A stretch of DNA of 64,000 nucleotides from an uncultured Ardenticatenaceae bacterium (GCA_964384155.1 CAYLJW010000004.1:6428-70427); one strand, 5' to 3'; shown: positions 1 to 9,661, counted from the first letter of the stretch. Program-made: numbers and translations. The notes: generated by a model from the sequence alone, not told the origin.

Positions 1-271
1 GGAAGCAGGGCAGACGGCCGTGGTCGTCGAGGATCTGGTGACATCGGGGGCCAGCATCTTGCAGGCCATCAGCGCACTCAAGGCCGCCGGTCTGCAGGTG
101 CAAGATGCGGTGGTGCTCATCGACCGTGAGCAGGGTGGACGTGAAGCGCTGGCGGAGACGGGTTACGGGCTACACGCGGTGCTCACCATCAGCCATATGC
201 TGGCTATCCTGGAGCGCCACGAGCGCATCAGCGCGCCGGAGCGCCTGGCGGTGTCGGCCGAGCTGAAGTAG
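1..271 (+). CDS. pyrE: orotate phosphoribosyltransferase, C-terminal fragment (5' end outside window)
   Basis: The frame is open from the window edge. VVVEDLVTSGASI is the PRPP-binding loop typical of type I phosphoribosyltransferases/PyrE. Other pyr genes lie nearby. Confidence 0.85.
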   Translation, partial: EAGQTAVVVEDLVTSGASILQAISALKAAGLQVQDAVVLIDREQGGREALAETGYGLHAVLTISHMLAILERHERISAPERLAVSAELK

Positions 272-277
272 CGCGAG

Positions 278-829
278 TCAGGCGTCTAGAATGGCCTGGG
301 CTACTTCGTGCATGGGGCGGCGGGCCTGGCGGGCCTGGCGCTGCATGGCCTGGTAGGCTTGCTCTTCACTCAGGCCGCCGGCCATCAGGCGGCCTTTGGC
401 GCGCTCGATGAGCTTGCGGTGCGCCAGTTCCTGCTCCACGGCCTGCAGCCGCTCGCGGCTCTGCGCCTGTTCGGCAAACCGTTTGTGGGCCACGGCGATG
501 GCCGCCAGGAGCTGCCCCGGCTGCACCGGCTTCACCAGGTAGCCCTGGATAGGTAAATCAGCGGCCTCTTCGACAAGGTCGCGTTCGCTAAAGGCGGTGA
601 GCAAGATTACCGGCAGCGGCGCGATGCGCGCCAGCGTGCGGGCGGCCTGCAAGCCATCGGTATGCGGCATCTTAATGTCCAGGATAGCCAAGTCGAACGG
701 CTGGCGTCGCGCCAGGCGCAAGGCCTCCTGCCCGTTGCGCGCCGCGGTCACCTGGTGGCCCATCTCTTGCAGCATCGCTTTGAGACCCATGCGGATAATG
801 GGCTCGTCGTCGGCGATTAGAATCTCCAC
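278..829 (-). CDS. response regulator with receiver plus ANTAR RNA-binding output domain (PdtaR-like)
   Basis: N-terminal REC domain (ILIADDEP...DLAILDIKMP...YLVKP). C-terminal ANTAR-like helices (LIERAKGRLMAGGLSEEQAYQAMQRQARQARRPMHEVAQAIL). Begins 4 nt downstream of the kinase gene. Confidence 0.85.
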   Translation of the reverse strand: MEILIADDEPIIRMGLKAMLQEMGHQVTAARNGQEALRLARRQPFDLAILDIKMPHTDGLQAARTLARIAPLPVILLTAFSERDLVEEAADLPIQGYLVKPVQPGQLLAAIAVAHKRFAEQAQSRERLQAVEQELAHRKLIERAKGRLMAGGLSEEQAYQAMQRQARQARRPMHEVAQAILDA

Positions 830-832
830 GCG

Positions 833-2509
833 CTATTCCGCCCTTTCCTCAAGAGTTTCGCGCGGCAAGCGGATGGTTACTTGCGTGCCCATGTCTAATC
901 GTTCGTAATGCAACCGGCCGCGCAGCTCTTCCTGCACCAGGGTTTGCACCAATTCGGTGCCCAGGCCGGGGCGATAATCTGGCGGCAGGCCCAGGCCGTC
1001 GTCCGTCACCGTAACCACCAGCTCTTGCGGCGCGTAGCCCAGGCTCACCTGCACGTTGCCGCCAGGCTGCCCCACAAAGGCGTGCTCCAGGGCGTTCTGC
1101 AGCAGCTCGTTGACCACCAGAGCCAGGTTGGTGGCGGTTCTGCTGGGCAGGAGCACGGCTTCGCCCTGCACCGACAGCTCCAGGCCCTGCTGCGGCGCGG
1201 TGAGGTTGGCGGCGGTCATGGCGGCAATGCGCTGCAACACTTCTTGCACGTCGACCAGGTGCAAGCCGCGCTCGGACAACACTTCGTGCACGGCGGCGAT
1301 GGTATAGACGCGGTGCATGCTAGTCTGGAGCACCTGCCGGGCGTCGGGGCCAGACGTGGTGGCGCTGCGCGCTTCTGATAGCTGTAGCTGCATGAGCATG
1401 GCTACGGTCTGCAGGTTATTCTTGATACGGTGGTGCATTTCGCGCACCATGGCCGCATTGGTGGCCAGGCGGGCGTGTTCGATGGCCAGCGCCGTCTGGT
1501 TAGCCAGGGTGACAAAGAGCGCTTGCTGCTCGGCGGAAAAAGTGCGCTGGTCATCGCTATAGCAGTTAAAGACGCCGATCACTCGTTGGCGCACGCTGAG
1601 CGGCACAGAGAGCAGCGAAACCAACCCTTCTCGGCGGGCCAGCTCGCGCTCCAGATAGTCGGGCTCGAGGCGCACATCGGGGATGTAAGCAGGTCGGTTT
1701 TGGGCTGCGACGCGCCCGATAATGCCTGTGCCTAAGGGTAATGGCGGCCGCAGCCGGTACGCTGCGCCGGCGTGCTGCGCCGAGCGCAGCTCCAGGTGTG
1801 CGCCGCGCTCATCCAACAGGAAGATGGAACAGAGGGTCGCGTCCATCACCTTCGCCGCCATCTCGGTGACGATGTCGAGGATGTCGTCCAGATATTGGGG
1901 CGATGTGACAACTTCGCTGACCCGTGCCAGGGCTTGCAGCTCCTCGATTTGGCGCTTCTGGTTATCGTGCAGCCGCGCCTTGGCCAGGGCGCCTGCCGCC
2001 AGATCGCCGATGAGCGACAGGGTTTCGATCTCGCGGGGGGCATAGGCGTGCGGCGCGATGGTTTGTACGTTTAGGGCGCCCAGCACCTGGTTCTCGATGA
2101 GCAGGGGCACGGCAAGCAAGGAGTGGAAGGCGCCTTCGGCGGCGCCTGGCACAATCTTGAAGTGGGGGTTGTGCTGCGCTTCGCTGGCGTACACGGCGGC
2201 CTTGCGCGCCACGGCATGGCCCGTCATGCCTTCGCCCACCTGTAGGGTGGCAAGGCCCAGCACGCGCTGCGCCAGACCGGTCGTGGCGCGCAGGCGCAGA
2301 GTGAGGCCGTCGGGGTCGAGGAGATAAATGGAACAAGAGTCGACGCGCATCACCTCCGTGGTCTTACGAGCGATCAGGTCCAGGGTGGTGTCCAGGTCCC
2401 AGGCGGTGCTCAACACGCGGGCAATCTCGCGCAAGGCCGCCAGGGCCTGCGGGCGCCCGGCGGCCAGGGTCGAGTCGTCAAGTGGCGATGGCTCGCTCAT
2501 GGCGTCCAT
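833..2509 (-). CDS. sensor histidine kinase, tandem GAF domains plus HisKA_2/HWE-type kinase core (PdtaS-like)
   Basis: Two GAF-like segments (SCSIYLLD..., LCSIFLLD...). H-box HHRIKNNLQTV. HATPase motifs (NELLQNALEH, DDGLGLP). No transmembrane segment visible. Confidence 0.8.
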   Translation of the reverse strand: MDAMSEPSPLDDSTLAAGRPQALAALREIARVLSTAWDLDTTLDLIARKTTEVMRVDSCSIYLLDPDGLTLRLRATTGLAQRVLGLATLQVGEGMTGHAVARKAAVYASEAQHNPHFKIVPGAAEGAFHSLLAVPLLIENQVLGALNVQTIAPHAYAPREIETLSLIGDLAAGALAKARLHDNQKRQIEELQALARVSEVVTSPQYLDDILDIVTEMAAKVMDATLCSIFLLDERGAHLELRSAQHAGAAYRLRPPLPLGTGIIGRVAAQNRPAYIPDVRLEPDYLERELARREGLVSLLSVPLSVRQRVIGVFNCYSDDQRTFSAEQQALFVTLANQTALAIEHARLATNAAMVREMHHRIKNNLQTVAMLMQLQLSEARSATTSGPDARQVLQTSMHRVYTIAAVHEVLSERGLHLVDVQEVLQRIAAMTAANLTAPQQGLELSVQGEAVLLPSRTATNLALVVNELLQNALEHAFVGQPGGNVQVSLGYAPQELVVTVTDDGLGLPPDYRPGLGTELVQTLVQEELRGRLHYERLDMGTQVTIRLPRETLEERAE

Positions 2510-2609
2510 TATAACCGTAACGCTGCGCGACGGAACGGATTCGGCGCGGTTGCTGGACGACTAAAGCCGCGATACGGACGAGCCTGGGACCGCCGGCGTG
2601 CAGGCGGCA

Positions 2610-4106
2610 TCAGGCGTCGTAGTACAGCATGAACTCATAGGGATGCGGGCGCAGGCGCAGGGGGTCGACTTCGCGGCTGCGCTTGACGCGGATCCAGGTT
2701 TCGATGAGCTCTTGGCTAAAGACGCCGCCTTGCAGCAGGAAGTCGTGATCTGCCTGCAGCGCATCCAGGGCGGCTTCTAGCGAGCCGGGGACCTGAGGGA
2801 TGCCGGCCGCTTGCTCGGCAGATAGCTCGTACAGGTCAAAGTCGGCGGGCGCGCCAGGATGGATCTTGTTGTGGATGCCGTCCAGCCCGGCCATGAGTAT
2901 GGCGGCAAAGGCCAGATAAGGATTTGCCGTGGGGTCGGGGCAGCGGTACTCGATGCGTGTGGCGCTGGGACTGGCGGAATAACGCGGAATGCGGATGCCG
3001 GCCGAGCGATTGCGCGAGGAGTAGACCAGGTTCACGGGCGCCTCGTAGCCCGGCGTGAGGCGACGGTAGGAGTTGGTTGTGGGCGCGCAGAGGGCGAGCA
3101 GGGCGGGGGAGTGGCGCAGGATGCCGCCGATGTAATAGAGTGCGGTCTCGGAAAGCGCGGCATAGCCGGCCGCATCGTGGAATAACGATTGGCCCTCTTT
3201 CCACAGGCTGTTGTGCACGTGCATGCCTGAGCCGTTGTCGCCGAAGATGGGCTTAGGCATGAAGGTGGCGGTGTAGCCATGGCGCCGCGCCACGTTCTTG
3301 ATGATGTACTTGTACCACATTTGCCAGTCGCCCATGGCTGTGAGCGAGTTATAACGCAGGTCGATCTCCTGCTGGCCGCTGCCGACTTCGGTGTGGTGCA
3401 TCTCTACTTGCAGGCCGGCCTGAGCCAGGCGCAGGGTCATTTCCGAGCGCATATCCTGCAGGGTATCCACCGGCGGCGACTGGAAGTAGTGCTCTTTGTG
3501 GCGCGCGCGGTGCGCCAGGTTGGGCGCGCCGCCGTTGCGCCCGCTGTTCCACACCGCTTCGTCGGAGTCGAGGAAGTAGTAGGCTGCCTGCGGCGTATTA
3601 TCGAAGCGAACACTTTCAAAGACGAAGAATTCGGCTTCTGGCCCCCAGTAGCTCGTGTCGGCGATGCCCGTCGCAAGCAGGTAGCGCTCGGCGGCCTGAG
3701 CCACGCGCCGCGCATCGCGGTCGTAGGGCCGGCGCGTGAGCGGGTCGGCGACGCTGCAGATGAGGCTGAGCGTGGGCACAGCGAGTAATGGATCGCGCAC
3801 AGCCGTGCGCGGGTCGGGCAGCAGGATCAGGTCGCTTTCCTCAATGCCCTGAAAGCCGACGATGGATGAGCCGTCGTAGCCGATGCCTTCTTCAAAGCTG
3901 CCTTCGTCCAGGGCGCTCAGCGGAACGCTGACGTGCCGCCACAGCCCCAGGAAATCGACAAAGCGCAGATCGACAATGCTCAGCCCATGCTCGCGGGCAT
4001 AGGCCAGCACCTCCGCAGGAGTTGTCAGAGGCTCAGAGGGCGCGCCCTTTAAATCGAGCTTGCCATTCGTATGCAGATCATTGGCTTGTGAAATCTTTTC
4101 TAACAC
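2610..4106 (-). CDS. glnA: glutamine synthetase type I
   Basis: Full-length match to GSI hallmarks (DLRFVDFLG, GSGMHVHNSLW, NSYRRL, SRNRSAGIRIP). GTG start preceded by GGAGG. Confidence 0.95.
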   Translation of the reverse strand: MLEKISQANDLHTNGKLDLKGAPSEPLTTPAEVLAYAREHGLSIVDLRFVDFLGLWRHVSVPLSALDEGSFEEGIGYDGSSIVGFQGIEESDLILLPDPRTAVRDPLLAVPTLSLICSVADPLTRRPYDRDARRVAQAAERYLLATGIADTSYWGPEAEFFVFESVRFDNTPQAAYYFLDSDEAVWNSGRNGGAPNLAHRARHKEHYFQSPPVDTLQDMRSEMTLRLAQAGLQVEMHHTEVGSGQQEIDLRYNSLTAMGDWQMWYKYIIKNVARRHGYTATFMPKPIFGDNGSGMHVHNSLWKEGQSLFHDAAGYAALSETALYYIGGILRHSPALLALCAPTTNSYRRLTPGYEAPVNLVYSSRNRSAGIRIPRYSASPSATRIEYRCPDPTANPYLAFAAILMAGLDGIHNKIHPGAPADFDLYELSAEQAAGIPQVPGSLEAALDALQADHDFLLQGGVFSQELIETWIRVKRSREVDPLRLRPHPYEFMLYYDA

Positions 4107-4144
4107 CGGTAACCTCCATGGGTTTTATGTTGGTTTGTTGGGCC

Positions 4145-4195
4145 AAAACGAAAAACGCCTCCACACCGCGACCGGACTGGTCACGGCGGGAGGCG
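4145..4195 (-). terminator. intrinsic terminator-like hairpin plus TTTTTCGTTTT inside the glnA leader (candidate attenuator)
   Basis: Minus strand reads CGCCTCCCGCCGTGACC-AGTCC-GGTCGCGGTGTGGAGGCG followed by TTTTTCGTTTT. It lies about 40 nt upstream of the glnA GTG and downstream of a promoter-like site. Confidence 0.55.
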
Positions 4196-4275
4196 TCATG
4201 GCCTCAAACACACTATGCTATTTTGTGCAGGCGGCGAACCTTGAAAGAAGCGGCCGCCACGGGCGCACGACTTAG

Positions 4276-4304
4276 AGCTTACGGCAAGGGCCGCCGCTTG
4301 TCAA
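4276..4304 (-). promoter_or_regulatory. sigma70-like promoter for glnA (TTGACA-17 nt-TAAGCT)
   Basis: Minus-strand TTGACA at 4304-4299 and TAAGCT at 4281-4276 with an exact 17-nt spacer. Predicts a leader of about 160 nt. Confidence 0.4.
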
Positions 4305-4392
4305 TGGCGCAAAGTACCAAAAATGTGTGGCGACGGTGTTGGCAACTTTGTCTATAAATGCCCGACAAGTCAGATATGACCCAGGCAGAAGG

Positions 4393-5391
4393 TTATGCCC
4401 GCCCCAGGACGGCTGCCAGCAAGGCCATGCGCACGTACATGCCGTTCTGCGCCTGGCGGAAGTAGGCGGCTCGGGGATCGGCGTCTACGCCGTAGTGGAT
4501 CTCGCCGACGCGGGGCAGGGGGTGCATGACAACCATTTTTTCCTTGGCCTGCGCCATTAATTCCGGTGTGATCACGTAGAAATCGTTCACGGCTTCATAC
4601 TGCGCCAGATCGCTGAAGCGTTCTTTCTGCACGCGCGTGACATAGAGCACATCGGCGTTTTCGATGACGTCGCGCACGTCGTGGGTCTCGCGCACGTCCA
4701 CGCCGGCGTCGATCACCTCATTCATCAGTGTGAGCGGCAGGCGCAGGATCTCCGGTGAGACAAAGCGAAGGCTGATGTCGTAGTGCAGCAGCAGCTTGGT
4801 GAGCGAGTGCACCGTGCGCCCGTAACGCAGGTCGCCGACCATGGCAATCTTCAGACCATTCAGCGTGCCCAGCTCTTCACGAATGGTGAACAGGTCCAGC
4901 AAGGCCTGGGTGGGATGCTCGCCGGGCCCATCGCCAGCATTAATCACGGGCACCGAGGCATAATCGGCCGCCAGTTGGGCAGCGCCAATTTCGGGGTGGC
5001 GCAAGACAATCACATCGGAGTATTGCTCCAGCGTACGCACGGTATCGGCCAGCGTTTCACCCTTGCTCACCGAGCTAAACTGCACGCCCTGAGTGATGGG
5101 GATGACCGTGCCGCCCAGGCGCTTGGCGGCGGCAATGAATGAGGAGCTGGTGCGTGTGCTGGGTTCGTAGAAGAGGCAGGTGAGCACGGCGCCTTCTAAT
5201 AAATTGGCGGCGCCCACGGCTTCTACCATCTCGCGCATCTCCTTGGAGCGCGTAAAAATATAGTCCAGCCTTTGCGGCGTGAACTGATCCACGGACAGAA
5301 TATCCATGCCCGTAAATCCATTGCCGTGGTGACCGTTGTCGCTGGCCATCTTTTTCAAATCAAACAGAGGTTTTAACGTCATACTTTCCAT
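4393..5391 (-). CDS. pyrB: aspartate carbamoyltransferase catalytic subunit
   Basis: Carbamoyl-phosphate motif [21 protein letters not shown]. Follows pyrC by 12 nt. Confidence 0.95.
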
Positions 5392-5403
5392 CGCACATCT
5401 CCT

Positions 5404-6513
5404 TTATAACATTTCATTTGATAGCGGCTCATTGGCAGCTTGCGGCTCCTCCAGGCTGGGCAGCACGCGGCCTGCGCCCGGCTGCGCCAGCACGTGCCCC
5501 TCTTCAAACACGGTTTGGCCGCGCAAAACCACGCGCACGACACGGCCCAGGGCGGTCATGCCCGCAAATGGCGTCCAGGCGCACTTGCTGAACATGCCCT
5601 CGCTGCGAATGACATACGGCTGGCCCACCTGCGCTTCGACATACGTCTGCTCCTGCTGCGGCAGGTTGAAGATGCGGCGCGGGTTGCTGTTCATCAGCGC
5701 GACCAGGCGCTCCTGGGTGAGGCGGCCTTCGGCGACGGCCGTCAGCATCAACGGTAGGGAGGTCTCTAGGCCAGGCACACCTGGCGGCGGCGTGGCGGAA
5801 GCTTTTTCCGCCAGGGTGTGCGGCGCATGGTCCGTGGCGATACAGTCGATTGTGTCGTCGAGGTGTTCCCATAAAGCAGCCACGTCGCTGGCGCTACCCA
5901 ACACCGGGCGCATATCGCCCAGAGCGCCGAGGCGCGGCGCGTCGGCCTCACTTAAGAACAGGTGGTGCGGCGCAACTTCGCAGGTTACGGGCAGTCCCCG
6001 GCCTTTGGCCGCCGCAATCAGCTCGATCTCTTCGCGGCGGCTGATGTGGCAAAAGTGCACGGCGCGGTCGTAGGATGCTGCCAGGCCAATGCCCACAGCC
6101 ACGCTTTGTTTCTCGGCGTGCATGGCAATCAGCTTGTGGCGCGGCCACTTTTCGAAGCAGGCTATCAACGCGGGCACGTCGTCGACGCGCAGCGGGCCAA
6201 ATGTGTCGTTGAGGTAGATCTTCAGGGCCACAGTGAGCGGCGCAAGCTGCTCTAGCTGGTCGATGGCCGTGGCGCTGGCGCCGGCGAATAGACCCACATC
6301 GCAGCGCGCGGCGGCCTGCGCCCTGGCGCGCGCCGATGCCAGCGCGGCCACGTCGATCAGGGGTGGGTTGGTGTTGGGCATGGCCAGGACCATGGTCACG
6401 CCGCCGGCCAGCGCGGCTGCCGTGCCTGTGGCGAAATCTTCCTTGTGCTCGCCGCCGGGCACGCGCAAATGGGTATGCACATCTACCAGCCCAGGCAGGG
6501 TTAAGTGGGTCAC
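5404..6513 (-). CDS. pyrC: dihydroorotase
   Basis: Metal-binding DVHTHLR at the N-terminus and amidohydrolase fold motifs (HAE, ATDHAPH). AGGAGG lies 4 nt before the GTG start. Operon with pyrB. Confidence 0.85.
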   Translation of the reverse strand: MTHLTLPGLVDVHTHLRVPGGEHKEDFATGTAAALAGGVTMVLAMPNTNPPLIDVAALASARARAQAAARCDVGLFAGASATAIDQLEQLAPLTVALKIYLNDTFGPLRVDDVPALIACFEKWPRHKLIAMHAEKQSVAVGIGLAASYDRAVHFCHISRREEIELIAAAKGRGLPVTCEVAPHHLFLSEADAPRLGALGDMRPVLGSASDVAALWEHLDDTIDCIATDHAPHTLAEKASATPPPGVPGLETSLPLMLTAVAEGRLTQERLVALMNSNPRRIFNLPQQEQTYVEAQVGQPYVIRSEGMFSKCAWTPFAGMTALGRVVRVVLRGQTVFEEGHVLAQPGAGRVLPSLEEPQAANEPLSNEML

Positions 6514-6638
6514 ACCACCTCCTCATTCCGGGCGCCAGGCAAAAAAAAGCCCGATCCTGAAAGGATCGGGCTGATAAAATGCCTTCTTACAGCAGTTATA
6601 CAAATGATTTTAGCGGCCCAGCGCCAGAACGGATTCAT
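6510..6638 (-). CDS. candidate 42-aa pyr leader peptide that reads through the attenuator hairpin (MNPFWRWAAKIICITAVRRHFISPILSGSGFFLPGARNEEVV)
   Basis: ATG at 6638 preceded by GGAGA (5-nt spacing). The ORF spans the terminator hairpin and T8 tract, and its TGA overlaps the pyrC GTG (GTGA). No homology evidence is available. Confidence 0.35.
   Translation of the reverse strand: MNPFWRWAAKIICITAVRRHFISPILSGSGFFLPGARNEEVV
6541..6572 (-). terminator. intrinsic terminator-like hairpin plus T8, 28 nt upstream of the pyrC start (candidate pyr attenuator)
   Basis: Minus strand reads AGCCCGATCC-TTTCA-GGATCGGGCT followed by TTTTTTTT. Located between a promoter-like site and the pyrC RBS. Confidence 0.55.
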
Positions 6639-6676
6639 TCAATCTCCATACATGCCGTTCTACATACCGGGATGCT

Positions 6677-6705
6677 ATGATAGCATTTTGTGTTGGCCCG
6701 GGCAA
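6677..6705 (-). promoter_or_regulatory. sigma70-like promoter for the pyrC-pyrB leader (TTGCCC-17 nt-TATCAT)
   Basis: Minus-strand TTGCCC at 6705-6700 and TATCAT at 6682-6677 with a 17-nt spacer. Confidence 0.4.
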
Positions 6706-6731
6706 AAAGTGCAGATCGCGCCACCTACCGC

Positions 6732-7289
6732 TCAATTTGAGATGATTTGGCCGTCTTGCAGACGGTAGACCTCGATAGCAAGGGCGTGAGTCACTAGAAT
6801 CGTGGTCAGGCCGGACTGTTGGTTAATTTGCCGCAGCAGGGCCAGGACTTCGGCGGCGGTCGTTGAATCCACTTCGCCCGTCGGCTCATCGGCCAGCAGG
6901 CGCGGTTTGCTGGCCAGGGCCACGGCAATGGCCACGCGCTGCTGCCGCTTGGCCACCAGCAGCGCCGGATCGTTGGCCGGCGCGGCCAGCCTGGGCAGCC
7001 AGCGCGCCGCCAGGTTTTCCAGCGAAAGCGTGCGGCGCAGCGTCTGGCGGCAGCGGTTGACCAGGATGGCAATGAGCCATGTTTCGAAGGCAGAGTCGCC
7101 GCGAAAGCCGCCAATCTTCTGGAATACGGCCAGATAGGTGTCCTGTACTGCGTCCTTGGCCGCTTCGCGCTCGCCCAGGATGGTATAGGCCAGGTCGAAG
7201 AGCTGATCCTGGTAATGATCGAACAGCGCGGCAAAAGCGCGCAAATCGCCTTCCTGGCAGCGGGCGACCAGGCTGGGTACGTCGGGCAT
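6732..7289 (-). pseudogene. chimeric ORF: ECF sigma-70 region 2 fused to the C-terminal third of an ABC-transporter ATPase (probable rearrangement remnant)
   Basis: Residues 1-95 resemble sigma70_r2 (DAVQDTYLAVFQKIGGFRGDSAFETWLIAILVNRCR). Residues from about 110 carry an ABC signature remnant/Walker B/H-loop (QQRVAIAVALASKPRLLADEPTGEVDS...ILVTH). There is no Walker A and no sigma region 4. Confidence 0.5.
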
Positions 7290-7467
7290 GAGGCATCCAT
7301 GGTCTATTGGTCAACGTGAGCGGAGAAATGGGGCCACTCCGGCTCACTTACTATATTAGATGCGCTTGCGCGCAACTTCTAGGGATTGGTTTCGCCACGG
7401 GGCGCCTGTACGCACGGCGGGCCGGCTGTTACAATAAGACCGTACACAGCAGTTGACAAAAGGACAC

Positions 7468-8301
7468 ATGCGCGCGATGAGCTATCTGCAGAAGCTGGCG
7501 GCTGCCCAGAAGAAAAATAACTCTTGGCTTTGTATTGGCCTGGACCCCGACCCGGCGCGCCTGCCGCTGCCCGCGATGCAGTGGGATGAGCCCGTACTGC
7601 CCTTTAATAAGGCGATCATCGACGCCACGCGCGACCTGGTGTGCGCCTATAAGCCCAATCTTGGCTTCTACTTGCAGTGGGGCGCGGCGGGCCTGATCGC
7701 TCTGGAACGGACGATTGCTTACATTCCCAACGACATTGTCGTGGTGCTGGACTGCAAGACGGGGGACATCGGCCATACGCAGGCGGCCTGGGGCGTGGGG
7801 CTGTTTGAGGTGTGGGGTGTGGACGCAGTCACCGTGAACCCTTATGTGGGCGCCGAAGCGATCGTGCCTATGGTGGGCGAGCGCCAGGACCGCGCCGTTT
7901 ATGTGCTGGCGCGCACGTCGAACGCGGGCGCGGCCGAGCTGCAGGGTAATTTGCAGGAGGAGACCGGGTTGTCGGCCGCCGTGTTGCGCGCGCGCTGGGA
8001 TGTGCAGGGAACTGTGGGTTACGTGGTAGGCGCCACGTATCCCCAGGAGCTGGCCGTGGCGCGACGGCTGGCGCCGCAAGCGCCGTTTCTCATTCCGGGC
8101 ATTGGCGCGCAGGGCGGCGACCTGGAAGCGGCCGTGCGCAGCGGCCCTGATCAGGTGGCCGGGCCGCTTATCAGCGCCAGCCGCACGATTCTCTATGCGT
8201 CGTCCGGCGCCGATTTTGACGCCGCGGCGCGCGCCGCGGCGCAGGGGGTGCGCGATGAGATCAATCGGCAGCGCGAAAGATGCTTCGATTCCTCAGCATG
8301 A
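7468..8301 (+). CDS. pyrF: orotidine 5'-phosphate decarboxylase (type 2)
   Basis: LCIGLDPD motif, DCKTGDIG and the type-2 PyrF C-terminal PGIGAQGG. Start is ambiguous (TTG 7453, ATG 7468 or ATG 7477). Confidence 0.9.
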   Translation: MRAMSYLQKLAAAQKKNNSWLCIGLDPDPARLPLPAMQWDEPVLPFNKAIIDATRDLVCAYKPNLGFYLQWGAAGLIALERTIAYIPNDIVVVLDCKTGDIGHTQAAWGVGLFEVWGVDAVTVNPYVGAEAIVPMVGERQDRAVYVLARTSNAGAAELQGNLQEETGLSAAVLRARWDVQGTVGYVVGATYPQELAVARRLAPQAPFLIPGIGAQGGDLEAAVRSGPDQVAGPLISASRTILYASSGADFDAAARAAAQGVRDEINRQRERCFDSSA

Positions 8302-8314
8302 CGTTTGGGGAAGG

Positions 8315-9661
8315 TTAGGGCAGGCTGAAGCGGAATAGCTTGTTGGCGTTGCCCGTGGCGAGCATCTCGCCCTGGTTGTTAAAGGTGATGCCAAACACAA
8401 AGCCCTCGGTGTCTGTTACGCCCAGGTAGCTGCCGCTGTTGGCGAATGTGAGAATGCCGGGGAAGTCGCTGACATAGATGCGGCCCTGGCCGTCCACGGC
8501 AATAGCGCTGGGGCTGGTGAACTGGCCGGGTTCCCGGCCCGTGCTGCCAAAGCGCGAGAGATAACGGCCTTCGTTGCTGAACATAAATACCCCGTTTTGG
8601 CGCTTTCCCAGCACGTCCTGGTAGACGGCCAGCATATAAACGTTGCCCCGGCCGTCGACGGCCAGCCGGTCGGCGCTGTTGATCTCGGCGGCCTCTTCCA
8701 AATTGACCACATGCAAGACATTGCCCACGGCGTCGAAGCGCACATATTCGCCGAAGTGATTGAGGGCCACGATGTCGCCGTTGGGCGCAACAGCCACGTC
8801 GCGAAATGAAACCAGCGTGTTGCTCGTGTAAGTCAGCTCGCCTAAGGGCTCGCCGCTCTCGCGGCTGAAGCGCACCAGGTTGCCGGCCTGCACCGCCAGC
8901 AGCTCGCCCTGCGCGCCCACGGCGAGGGACTGGATAACCTGATCCTTATTCCATTGCCAGACGCCCTGGGAATTGCCCTCACCGTTGAAGCGCTGGACAC
9001 GGCCGTTGCTGTAGTCGGCGATGTAAACGACGCCATCTGGCGCCACGGCCATCGCGCGCGGATCGACGAACTGGCCGGGCGCAATGCCTTCGCTGCCAAA
9101 ACTATCGATCAGCGTAGCGTAACCCTGGGGCCCGGCCGGGGCCGGCGCCCGGGGCGTGATCATCTGCACTTCGCGAACGATCTGCGCCACTTCTGTAGCC
9201 ATAGGCTCTTGGGCAAAGAAGGACCAGACGGCTGCGCCGCCGGCGAGAAGGGGTACGACGACCGTGCCAACGACGACCAGCATCACCACCAGGCCGATAA
9301 TGCAGCCTAAGCGCCGGCCGGCGCCTGAGCCGCTGCCGGCCTGAATGCTCACGTGCTGCGTCGAAAGGCTCAGGCCGTCGGCCAGGCGGGCCACGGCCTC
9401 TTGCGCCTGCGTATGGTTCACGCCAAAGGTAGCAGCGAACAGCGTGGCCGCCTCGTCGCGCTGTCCGGCGTTGATCAGGCGCACGACCTCGTGCATTGTG
9501 CTCTGATGGCCGTAGAGATTAGAGACCGCCTGGGTGTTGCGCCGCAGCGACTGCGGAACGATGACCGTGCTGCCGCAATAGTCGCAGCGCACGGTGGCGT
9601 GATCGCCGCCGTCGTATTCCAGGCGCCCGCTGCAAGATGGACAACGAAAAACTTCTGCCAT
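8315..9661 (-). CDS. membrane-anchored NHL-repeat beta-propeller protein with N-terminal zinc ribbon
   Basis: CPSC...CDYC zinc ribbon, one transmembrane helix (IIGLVVMLVVVGTVVVPLLAGG) and repeated NHL-like units (GQFVDPRAMAVAPDGVVYIADYSNGRVQRF etc.). ATG at 9661 follows GGAGGG. Confidence 0.75.
   Translation of the reverse strand: MAEVFRCPSCSGRLEYDGGDHATVRCDYCGSTVIVPQSLRRNTQAVSNLYGHQSTMHEVVRLINAGQRDEAATLFAATFGVNHTQAQEAVARLADGLSLSTQHVSIQAGSGSGAGRRLGCIIGLVVMLVVVGTVVVPLLAGGAAVWSFFAQEPMATEVAQIVREVQMITPRAPAPAGPQGYATLIDSFGSEGIAPGQFVDPRAMAVAPDGVVYIADYSNGRVQRFNGEGNSQGVWQWNKDQVIQSLAVGAQGELLAVQAGNLVRFSRESGEPLGELTYTSNTLVSFRDVAVAPNGDIVALNHFGEYVRFDAVGNVLHVVNLEEAAEINSADRLAVDGRGNVYMLAVYQDVLGKRQNGVFMFSNEGRYLSRFGSTGREPGQFTSPSAIAVDGQGRIYVSDFPGILTFANSGSYLGVTDTEGFVFGITFNNQGEMLATGNANKLFRFSLP

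Follow-up and report, generated by a model that had tools for sequence, protein, structure and literature searches.

How transcription into the glutamine synthetase gene glnA is controlled was examined in a 64,000-nucleotide (nt) stretch of DNA from an uncultured Ardenticatenaceae bacterium (GCA_964384155.1, CAYLJW010000004.1:6428-70427; this whole stretch is called the window here), in which glnA is followed on the same strand by genes for a GAF-domain histidine kinase and a REC-ANTAR response regulator. An initial annotation, made from the sequence alone, had proposed that the ANTAR protein governs an intrinsic terminator in the glnA leader by binding a small hexaloop hairpin. The present analysis favours this reading: with a probability of roughly 0.72, the glnA leader would be a protein-dependent transcription attenuator run by the operon's own REC-ANTAR regulator. 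Support comes from the conservation of the leader module across the family, from compensatory changes in both of its helices and from the fact that only amtB, glnA or glnN genes are attached to it. It comes also from a recurrent linkage in cis to the kinase and regulator genes, from the presence of one element and one ANTAR protein in the genome, and from the retention of the residues predicted to contact the fourth loop base, G4. All leader and operon coordinates (Table 1) refer to the minus strand of the window.

The hexaloop hairpin and the GC-rich terminator could both be recovered at the locus, and they compete for the same bases. The hairpin is predicted to fold at -6.9 kcal/mol alone and the terminator at -37.1 kcal/mol (z = -7.9), a stability reached by none of 200 shuffled sequences. 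From the end of the terminator U-tract it is 38 nt to the GTG start codon of glnA and 28 nt to the GGAGG ribosome-binding site. Positions 4197-4190 are common to both folds, with the 3' arm of the hairpin and loop bases 4-6 forming the base of the terminator 5' arm, and the two structures are therefore mutually exclusive, as had been proposed. The energies of hairpin and terminator fit a default of termination that needs a stabilising factor to be overcome. The layout expected of an attenuator was thus found, namely a terminator between promoter and start codon together with an exclusive alternative fold, on the basis of predicted folds, a conserved promoter position and covariation.

Covariation was scored for each of the two folds. 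In the alignment used for the hairpin (A3, 30 leader sequences), 98% of cells were paired and three of the five pairs showed compensatory changes (G-C to U-A or A-U; A-U to G-C; G-C to A-U); none of 500 shuffles reached the observed score, and sliding the register lowered pairing to 37-64%. For the terminator, 15 of 18 pairs showed compensatory changes, 93.6% of cells were paired and again none of 500 shuffles reached the observed score, in an alignment that was fitted to the terminator structure and leans towards it. The family consensus of the loop is C-A-N-G-A-Y, in which C1, G4 and A5 are invariant even in low-scoring model matches and A2 is nearly so, position 3 varies freely, and changes at position 6 are matched by changes in the base that it pairs with at the 3' end of the terminator stem. 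Because C1, A2 and G4 are kept despite having no partner in the terminator (in this copy G4 forms at most a terminal G-U pair), the hairpin state appears to be recognised by a factor acting in trans. On this covariation, both alternative folds are under selection.

The free variation of loop position 3 also bears on a second reading offered in the initial annotation, in which a 24-codon open reading frame (ORF) starting at the AUG of the loop (4199) would couple ribosome movement to termination. The frame exists and spans the terminator. However, an AUG is present in the loop of only 4 of 41 leaders, its occurrence being sporadic because position 3 is the variable base, and the four resulting peptides are unrelated, one of them ending after 6 codons. 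The GAGG located 2 nt before the AUG is itself paired in the hairpin. That this frame is a translated, regulatory leader is scarcely credible.

Alignment of glnA leaders among relatives, which the initial annotation had suggested as a check, showed a shared order of promoter, A-rich block, hairpin (loop mostly CAGGAC or CAAGAC) and terminator. A covariance model, R1, was built from eight leaders. It found exactly one site in the window's own genome, the glnA leader (82 bits), and matched 121 of 151 genomes and 34 of 36 genera of this family of Anaerolineae, mostly at one site per genome and sometimes at two or three, although related genomes are non-independent and such counts overstate the statistical weight. 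Outside the family, matches were obtained in 5 of about 148 genomes of the same class, four of which span the whole element with the loop unchanged. A search of all species genomes with the pattern TTGAGGCCANGACGCCTCC returned 28 loci. Those from Chloroflexota/Anaerolineae, labelled Ardenticatenaceae, Thermoflexales or 'Anaerolineae bacterium' by NCBI, are real, and the scattered proteobacterial and other matches were set aside, their number being close to the chance estimate (roughly 17 for 18 fixed bases). In all 41 leaders inspected, the first gene after the element encodes AmtB (16), a type III glutamine synthetase (GSIII; 14) or a type I glutamine synthetase (GSI; 11), with the coding sequence starting 70-260 nt from the start of the hairpin. 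The gene upstream of the element differs between genomes.

A conserved element before glutamine synthetase and ammonium transporter genes, with invariant unpaired bases, would also be expected of a small metabolite riboswitch acting without protein, for example one for glutamine. Searches of Rfam (cmscan, 4227 families), covering positions 1-9000 and, with laxer filters, 4080-4400, gave no family in the leader at E <= 10, glutamine riboswitches included, save three fragments at chance level; the riboswitch match that the initial annotation had thought worth seeking did not appear. Besides the terminator, the conserved part consists of a 16-nt hairpin and an unstructured A-rich stretch, which is too small for a known ligand pocket, and no further conserved helices were found. 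A riboswitch is therefore highly improbable. As judged from its distribution, the leader is a conserved RNA element absent from Rfam.

The promoter described in the initial annotation lies where it had been placed (Table 1), and transcription is predicted to start near 4269. A scan of 3900-4600 for consensus promoters and terminators reported nothing: the promoter was missed because TAAGCT fits TATAAT at three of six positions, and the terminator escaped the simple terminator scan because its stem has a bulge. The empty scan is no evidence of the absence of either. Of 41 related leaders, 32 have a promoter of the form TTGACN-16/18-TAnnnT (at least 9 of 12 positions matching) 5' of the hairpin, with 20-88 nt (median 33) between the end of the -10 box and the hairpin. 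With a promoter 5' of the hairpin and a nitrogen gene always 3' of it, the terminator is placed inside the 5' leader of nitrogen-assimilation operons.

A simpler explanation had been named at the outset, in which the hairpin and U-tract do no more than terminate pyrB, the gene upstream, and transcription of glnA starts downstream of them. The spacer between pyrB and glnA is 286 nt as read from the sequence. Between the pyrB stop codon (4393) and the glnA promoter (4305-4392, minus strand) there is no intrinsic terminator, so that transcripts running on from the pyr operon are probably stopped by the terminator in the glnA leader. The gap from the U-tract to the glnA start, however, leaves no room for a promoter. 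The promoter is conserved upstream of the hairpin, the antiterminator arm covaries with the terminator arm, and across relatives the element tracks the downstream nitrogen gene while the upstream genes differ. A role as pyrB terminator alone is a very remote prospect. A weak hairpin without a U-tract was also seen past pyrB, at about 4347-4375.

Table 1. Features of the glnA leader and operon in the window
Feature	Coordinates	Strand	Details
pyrB-like aspartate carbamoyltransferase gene	5391-4393	minus	upstream of glnA
Sigma-70-type promoter of the glnA leader	4276..4304	minus	TTGACA 4304-4299, 17-nt spacer, TAAGCT 4281-4276; sequence reading
Extra 5' hairpin GGCGGC...GCCGCC	4230..4258	minus	fold -14 kcal/mol, z = -2.2
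A-rich block	4206..4226	minus	ACAAAAUAGCAUAG then UUU; immediately 5' of the hairpin
Antiterminator hairpin, proposed ANTAR site	4190..4205	minus	GAGGC-CAUGAC-GCCUC; 5-bp stem and hexaloop
Intrinsic terminator	4145..4197	minus	stem 4197-4154, then UUUUUCGUUUU to 4145; 19 pairs, one bulged U
glnA, type I glutamine synthetase	2610..4106	minus	498 residues, GTG start 4106; Pfam Gln-synt_N and Gln-synt_C
Sensor histidine kinase	833..2509	minus	GAF-GAF-HisKA_2-HATPase_c (Pfam)
REC-ANTAR response regulator, proposed antiterminator	278..829	minus	Pfam Response_reg 101.8 bits, ANTAR 57.7 bits

Pfam searches confirmed the GAF kinase and ANTAR regulator that had been proposed downstream of glnA. The regulator gene begins 3 nt after the kinase gene. 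Its product belongs to the PdtaR/EutV type of REC-ANTAR proteins, with both domains above their Pfam cut-offs and the G4-contact residues present, and its closest solved relatives are PdtaR (1S8N, 1.4e-36) and EutV (6WSH, 2.8e-25). In the structure of EutV bound to RNA, the sole base-specific contacts are made to the flipped-out G4 by Arg142, Lys149, Glu160 and Tyr164 (PMC8934654). By alignment, equivalents of all four residues are kept in the regulator and in its family orthologs. The equivalent of EutV Met172, which forms a hydrophobic plug in the bound hexaloop, is an arginine in all family orthologs. This replacement occurs alongside C1 and A5 in the family loop instead of the usual A1 and G5, and the combination may represent co-adaptation of protein and RNA.

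Orthologs of the regulator, called at E <= 1e-25, were found in 123 of the 151 family genomes; element and regulator occur together in 105 genomes, the element only in 11, the regulator only in 18 and neither in 17. Of the 105 genomes holding both, 52 have them on one contig and strand, with the element 3.2-14 kb upstream of the regulator and never in the reverse order. The same cis arrangement was seen in 11 of 14 assemblies of no more than 10 contigs (tally from tables). The usual operon order is element, optional amtB, glnA or glnN, kinase, regulator, and one family (f11) has kinase, regulator, element, a LysE-like gene and glnA. The glnA-kinase-regulator synteny at first seemed limited to the genus, an impression that arose because GSIII is used, or amtB comes first, in most of the family. 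The window genome encodes a single ANTAR protein (the only PF03861 match) to go with its single element. In one near-complete genome (G016) the pair is split: glnA and the element are followed, about 1.2 kb further downstream, by a kinase homolog (locus L063, contig C2 near 477-480 kb), and the ANTAR regulator is located at C2:1443881, 960 kb off, with no adjoining kinase.

Several observations weigh against the ANTAR protein as the factor that holds the hairpin. The classical ANTAR target (Ramesh 2012, Mehta 2021) is a tandem pair of hexaloop hairpins with a 2-25 nt linker, and both loops have A1 and G4 (PMC8164766). Loop position 1 is C, not the canonical A, in every inspected model match. 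An upstream xxxGxx hairpin within 25 nt, which could serve as the first (P1) hexaloop, was present in 8 of 41 leaders, where shuffles gave 10.0 +/- 2.7; when A1 was also required, the figures were 3 of 41 and 3.8. Folding of individual sequences upstream of the hairpin gave no common structure, and in many members the transcript starts, as placed by the promoters, about 15-25 nt before the hairpin, too close to hold a second one. Across genomes, four assemblies that are 90-97% complete (G098, G100, G107 and G108) contain the element with no ANTAR domain above the Pfam cut-off, and 11 element-only and 18 regulator-only genomes were counted, numbers compatible with what 5-10% missing sequence would give. 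Across the class, in which the element is rare, homologs of the regulator (42-51% identity) occur widely, which indicates that the regulator family also has other targets. The cis linkage could arise if kinase and regulator were merely cargo of the operon.

Taken as a rival explanation, these points describe a real attenuator whose hairpin is held by another factor, either a different RNA-binding protein or a small RNA, with the kinase and ANTAR regulator as cargo directed at other targets. The departures from the ANTAR consensus, the assemblies lacking a detectable ANTAR domain and the spread of regulator homologs would all be accommodated, as would the conserved A-rich block beside the hairpin, which has no assigned partner. 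However, CsrA, CAT_RBD (CAT/BglG-type) and HutP are all absent from the window genome. With one model site and one ANTAR protein, the regulator has no other obvious target in that genome; the cis linkage recurs in several gene orders, and the invariant G4 matches the conserved G4-contact residues. Another factor is considered unlikely. Individual candidates were also rejected, CsrA binding to the GGA within the loop CAGGAC because A is as frequent as G at loop position 3 and the genome lacks a CsrA gene, and antiterminators of the CAT/BglG or HutP type because the window genome does not encode them.

For the REC-ANTAR reading, the question becomes which definition of an ANTAR site the element fits. 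Two classical features were found family-wide and with covariation, namely G4 in a hexaloop and overlap of the terminator-proximal hairpin with the terminator 5' arm. The element falls outside the classical dual-hexaloop definition. The initial annotation had rightly flagged the single hairpin and the C at the start of the loop, and on comparison across the family these are fixed properties rather than flaws of this copy. According to the 2022 redefinition by Walshe et al., one hexaloop with G4 is enough for a minimal ANTAR site (PMC8934654). Set against that definition (at least three closing pairs, G4 presented), the element has a 5-bp stem, with the pairing given above, and an invariant G4.

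The place of a first hairpin is taken by the A-rich block. When 41 leaders were lined up by their hairpins, the share of A was 56-80% at positions -17 to -8 and that of U was 76-90% at positions -3 to -1. Across these leaders the block forms no hexaloop hairpin, and no pairing partner was found for it. It could provide a second contact for a regulator dimer. Occasional pairing of the block with the UUU before the hairpin was observed, with loops of about 4 to 13 nt, a spread in size because of which this pairing was not taken to be P1.

The kinase may explain which signal the leader responds to. It had been called PdtaS-like, a description that holds for its HisKA_2/HATPase_c core and is in keeping with PdtaR as the nearest solved relative of its partner; the sensor part departs from it, since Pfam shows two GAF domains there and detected no PAS domain. 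The first GAF (residues 23-208) resembles that of PtsP/EI-Ntr (NF008283, 1.2e-39; PDB 3CI6 and 3TRC), and the second (residues 190-386) that of NifA (TIGR01817, 1.4e-21). The NifA GAF binds 2-oxoglutarate. Glutamine bound to the EI-Ntr GAF inhibits EI-Ntr autophosphorylation in several bacteria (PMC4848567). No PII (PF00543), sigma-54 (PF04552) or Amt (PF00909) was found in the window genome, which is 100% complete by marker genes. Among 81 family genomes at least 90% complete, canonical PII (>80 bits) occurs in three, the other matches being weak PII-like proteins at 22-37 bits, and in at least two of the three it adjoins the element downstream on the same contig. By analogy with these GAF domains, it is plausible that the kinase responds directly to glutamine or 2-oxoglutarate and acts as the principal nitrogen sensor. 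A broader proposal is more tentative and should be regarded as doubtful in its full extent: that the kinase and its ANTAR partner form a master nitrogen sensor without PII or NtrBC, reading glutamine through the PtsP-type GAF and 2-oxoglutarate through the NifA-type GAF, that amtB, GSI, GSIII and the sensor pair are all switched via one CANGAY hairpin, and that nearly all members of the family have dispensed with the near-universal PII.

Upstream of the kinase, a TATAAT at 2513-2508 ends 7 nt before an in-frame ATG (2500) with no Shine-Dalgarno sequence. A TAnAAT 6-8 nt before an ATG recurs at this place in several genera (loci L114, L116, L118, L119 and L123). The arrangement suggests a putative leaderless internal promoter that would give basal expression of kinase and regulator independent of read-through from the leader.

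A sequence of events can be proposed in which transcription would begin at the TTGACA-17-TAAGCT promoter and, by default, the 19-pair terminator (4197-4154, U-tract to 4145) would fold, so that transcripts stop 38 nt before glnA. Under nitrogen scarcity, presumably sensed through glutamine or 2-oxoglutarate by the PtsP-type and NifA-type GAFs, the kinase may phosphorylate the REC-ANTAR regulator; the direction of this signal is inferred. The phosphorylated regulator would then bind the nascent hexaloop hairpin (4205-4190, CANGAY), presumably reading the flipped-out G4. With the 3' arm and loop bases 4-6 tied up in the bound hairpin, they would be unable to nucleate the terminator stem, and RNA polymerase would pass into glnA and then into the kinase and regulator genes, giving positive feedback. 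The internal promoter may supply the basal level of both proteins.

The remaining features lie around this core. The 5' hairpin at 4230-4258 is specific to the genus and outside the conserved module, and most family members are without it, their promoters being located about 30 nt before the conserved hairpin. The glnA product scores 625 bits against NCBIfam TIGR00653 (GlnA), over the cut-off, and its Shine-Dalgarno sequence GGAGG lies at 4117-4113. Between amtB and the glutamine synthetase gene of three genomes, an ORF of 316-369 residues was seen (L109:1902-2858 on the reverse-complemented locus, L118:1909-3018 and L122:1937-2887). The representative examined (L118:1909-3018) had no Pfam or NCBIfam match, and the ORF is an uncharacterised member of the controlled operon.

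A family-wide, covariance-modelled element with a strict gene association could join annotation pipelines for Chloroflexota. It would also provide natural evidence, drawn from many genomes, that a single hexaloop with an invariant G4 and no A1 can act as a co-transcriptional ANTAR antiterminator, a possibility raised but left open by Walshe et al. (2022). The kinase is a candidate direct sensor of glutamine or 2-oxoglutarate and would be a tractable model of PII-independent nitrogen control. Wastewater and sediment communities are rich in these Anaerolineae, and knowledge of how they switch ammonium assimilation is of use in interpreting metatranscriptomes.

ANTAR antitermination of nitrogen genes is already established, and the principle is not new. 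Genes for glutamine synthase, PII and ammonium transporters have been listed with predicted ANTAR targets ahead of them (Ramesh 2012; PMC3369931); in the literature that was searched, no paper linked ANTAR to Chloroflexi. The EutV/eut system of Enterococcus faecalis and the NasR/nasF and AmiR/amiE systems likewise place a short-stem G4 hexaloop over the terminator 5' arm and serve nitrogen metabolism (PMC3369931, PMC8934654), and the regulator EutV shares the REC-ANTAR architecture and the G4-contact residues. In contrast to their targets, the element described here has one hairpin instead of two, C1 instead of A1, and an A-rich single strand in place of P1. The PdtaS/PdtaR pair of Mycobacterium tuberculosis shares with the present pair the HisKA_2 core and a cytoplasmic GAF-containing sensor, as well as PdtaR as the regulator's nearest solved relative, whereas the PdtaS sensor is GAF plus PAS and the sensor here is GAF-GAF of PtsP and NifA type. 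Mycobacterial ANTAR RNAs act mostly on translation at ribosome-binding sites (PMC8164766), whereas the intrinsic terminator is the predicted controlled step here.

The comparison with Geobacter sulfurreducens GnfK/GnfR (Ueki and Lovley 2010) also concerns a histidine kinase and REC-ANTAR pair dedicated to nitrogen genes. GnfR binds a single site, CAGGCAANGGCGCC, in a phosphorylation-dependent manner, overlapping the terminators of nif, glnK and amtB leaders (PMC2995071), and in both systems the single site overlaps the 5' side of the terminator (in Geobacter at nifH, glnK, amtB and others; PMC2995071). The GnfR site folds as GGC-AANGGC-GCC and has A2, G4, C6 and the GGC/GCC closing pairs in common with the element here. 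The two differ in that the loop here is CANGAY, with C1 and A5, and the targets are glnA, glnN and amtB, not nif genes. The promoter here is of sigma-70 type, with no sigma-54 or NtrC-like master system above it. GnfK is without an apparent sensor, whereas the kinase here has two GAF sensors, and kinase and regulator usually lie within the operon they would control. The present system would be a variant of an established kind of switch, marked by the single hairpin, the CANGAY loop and the PtsP/NifA-type GAF kinase, in a lineage with little or no PII.

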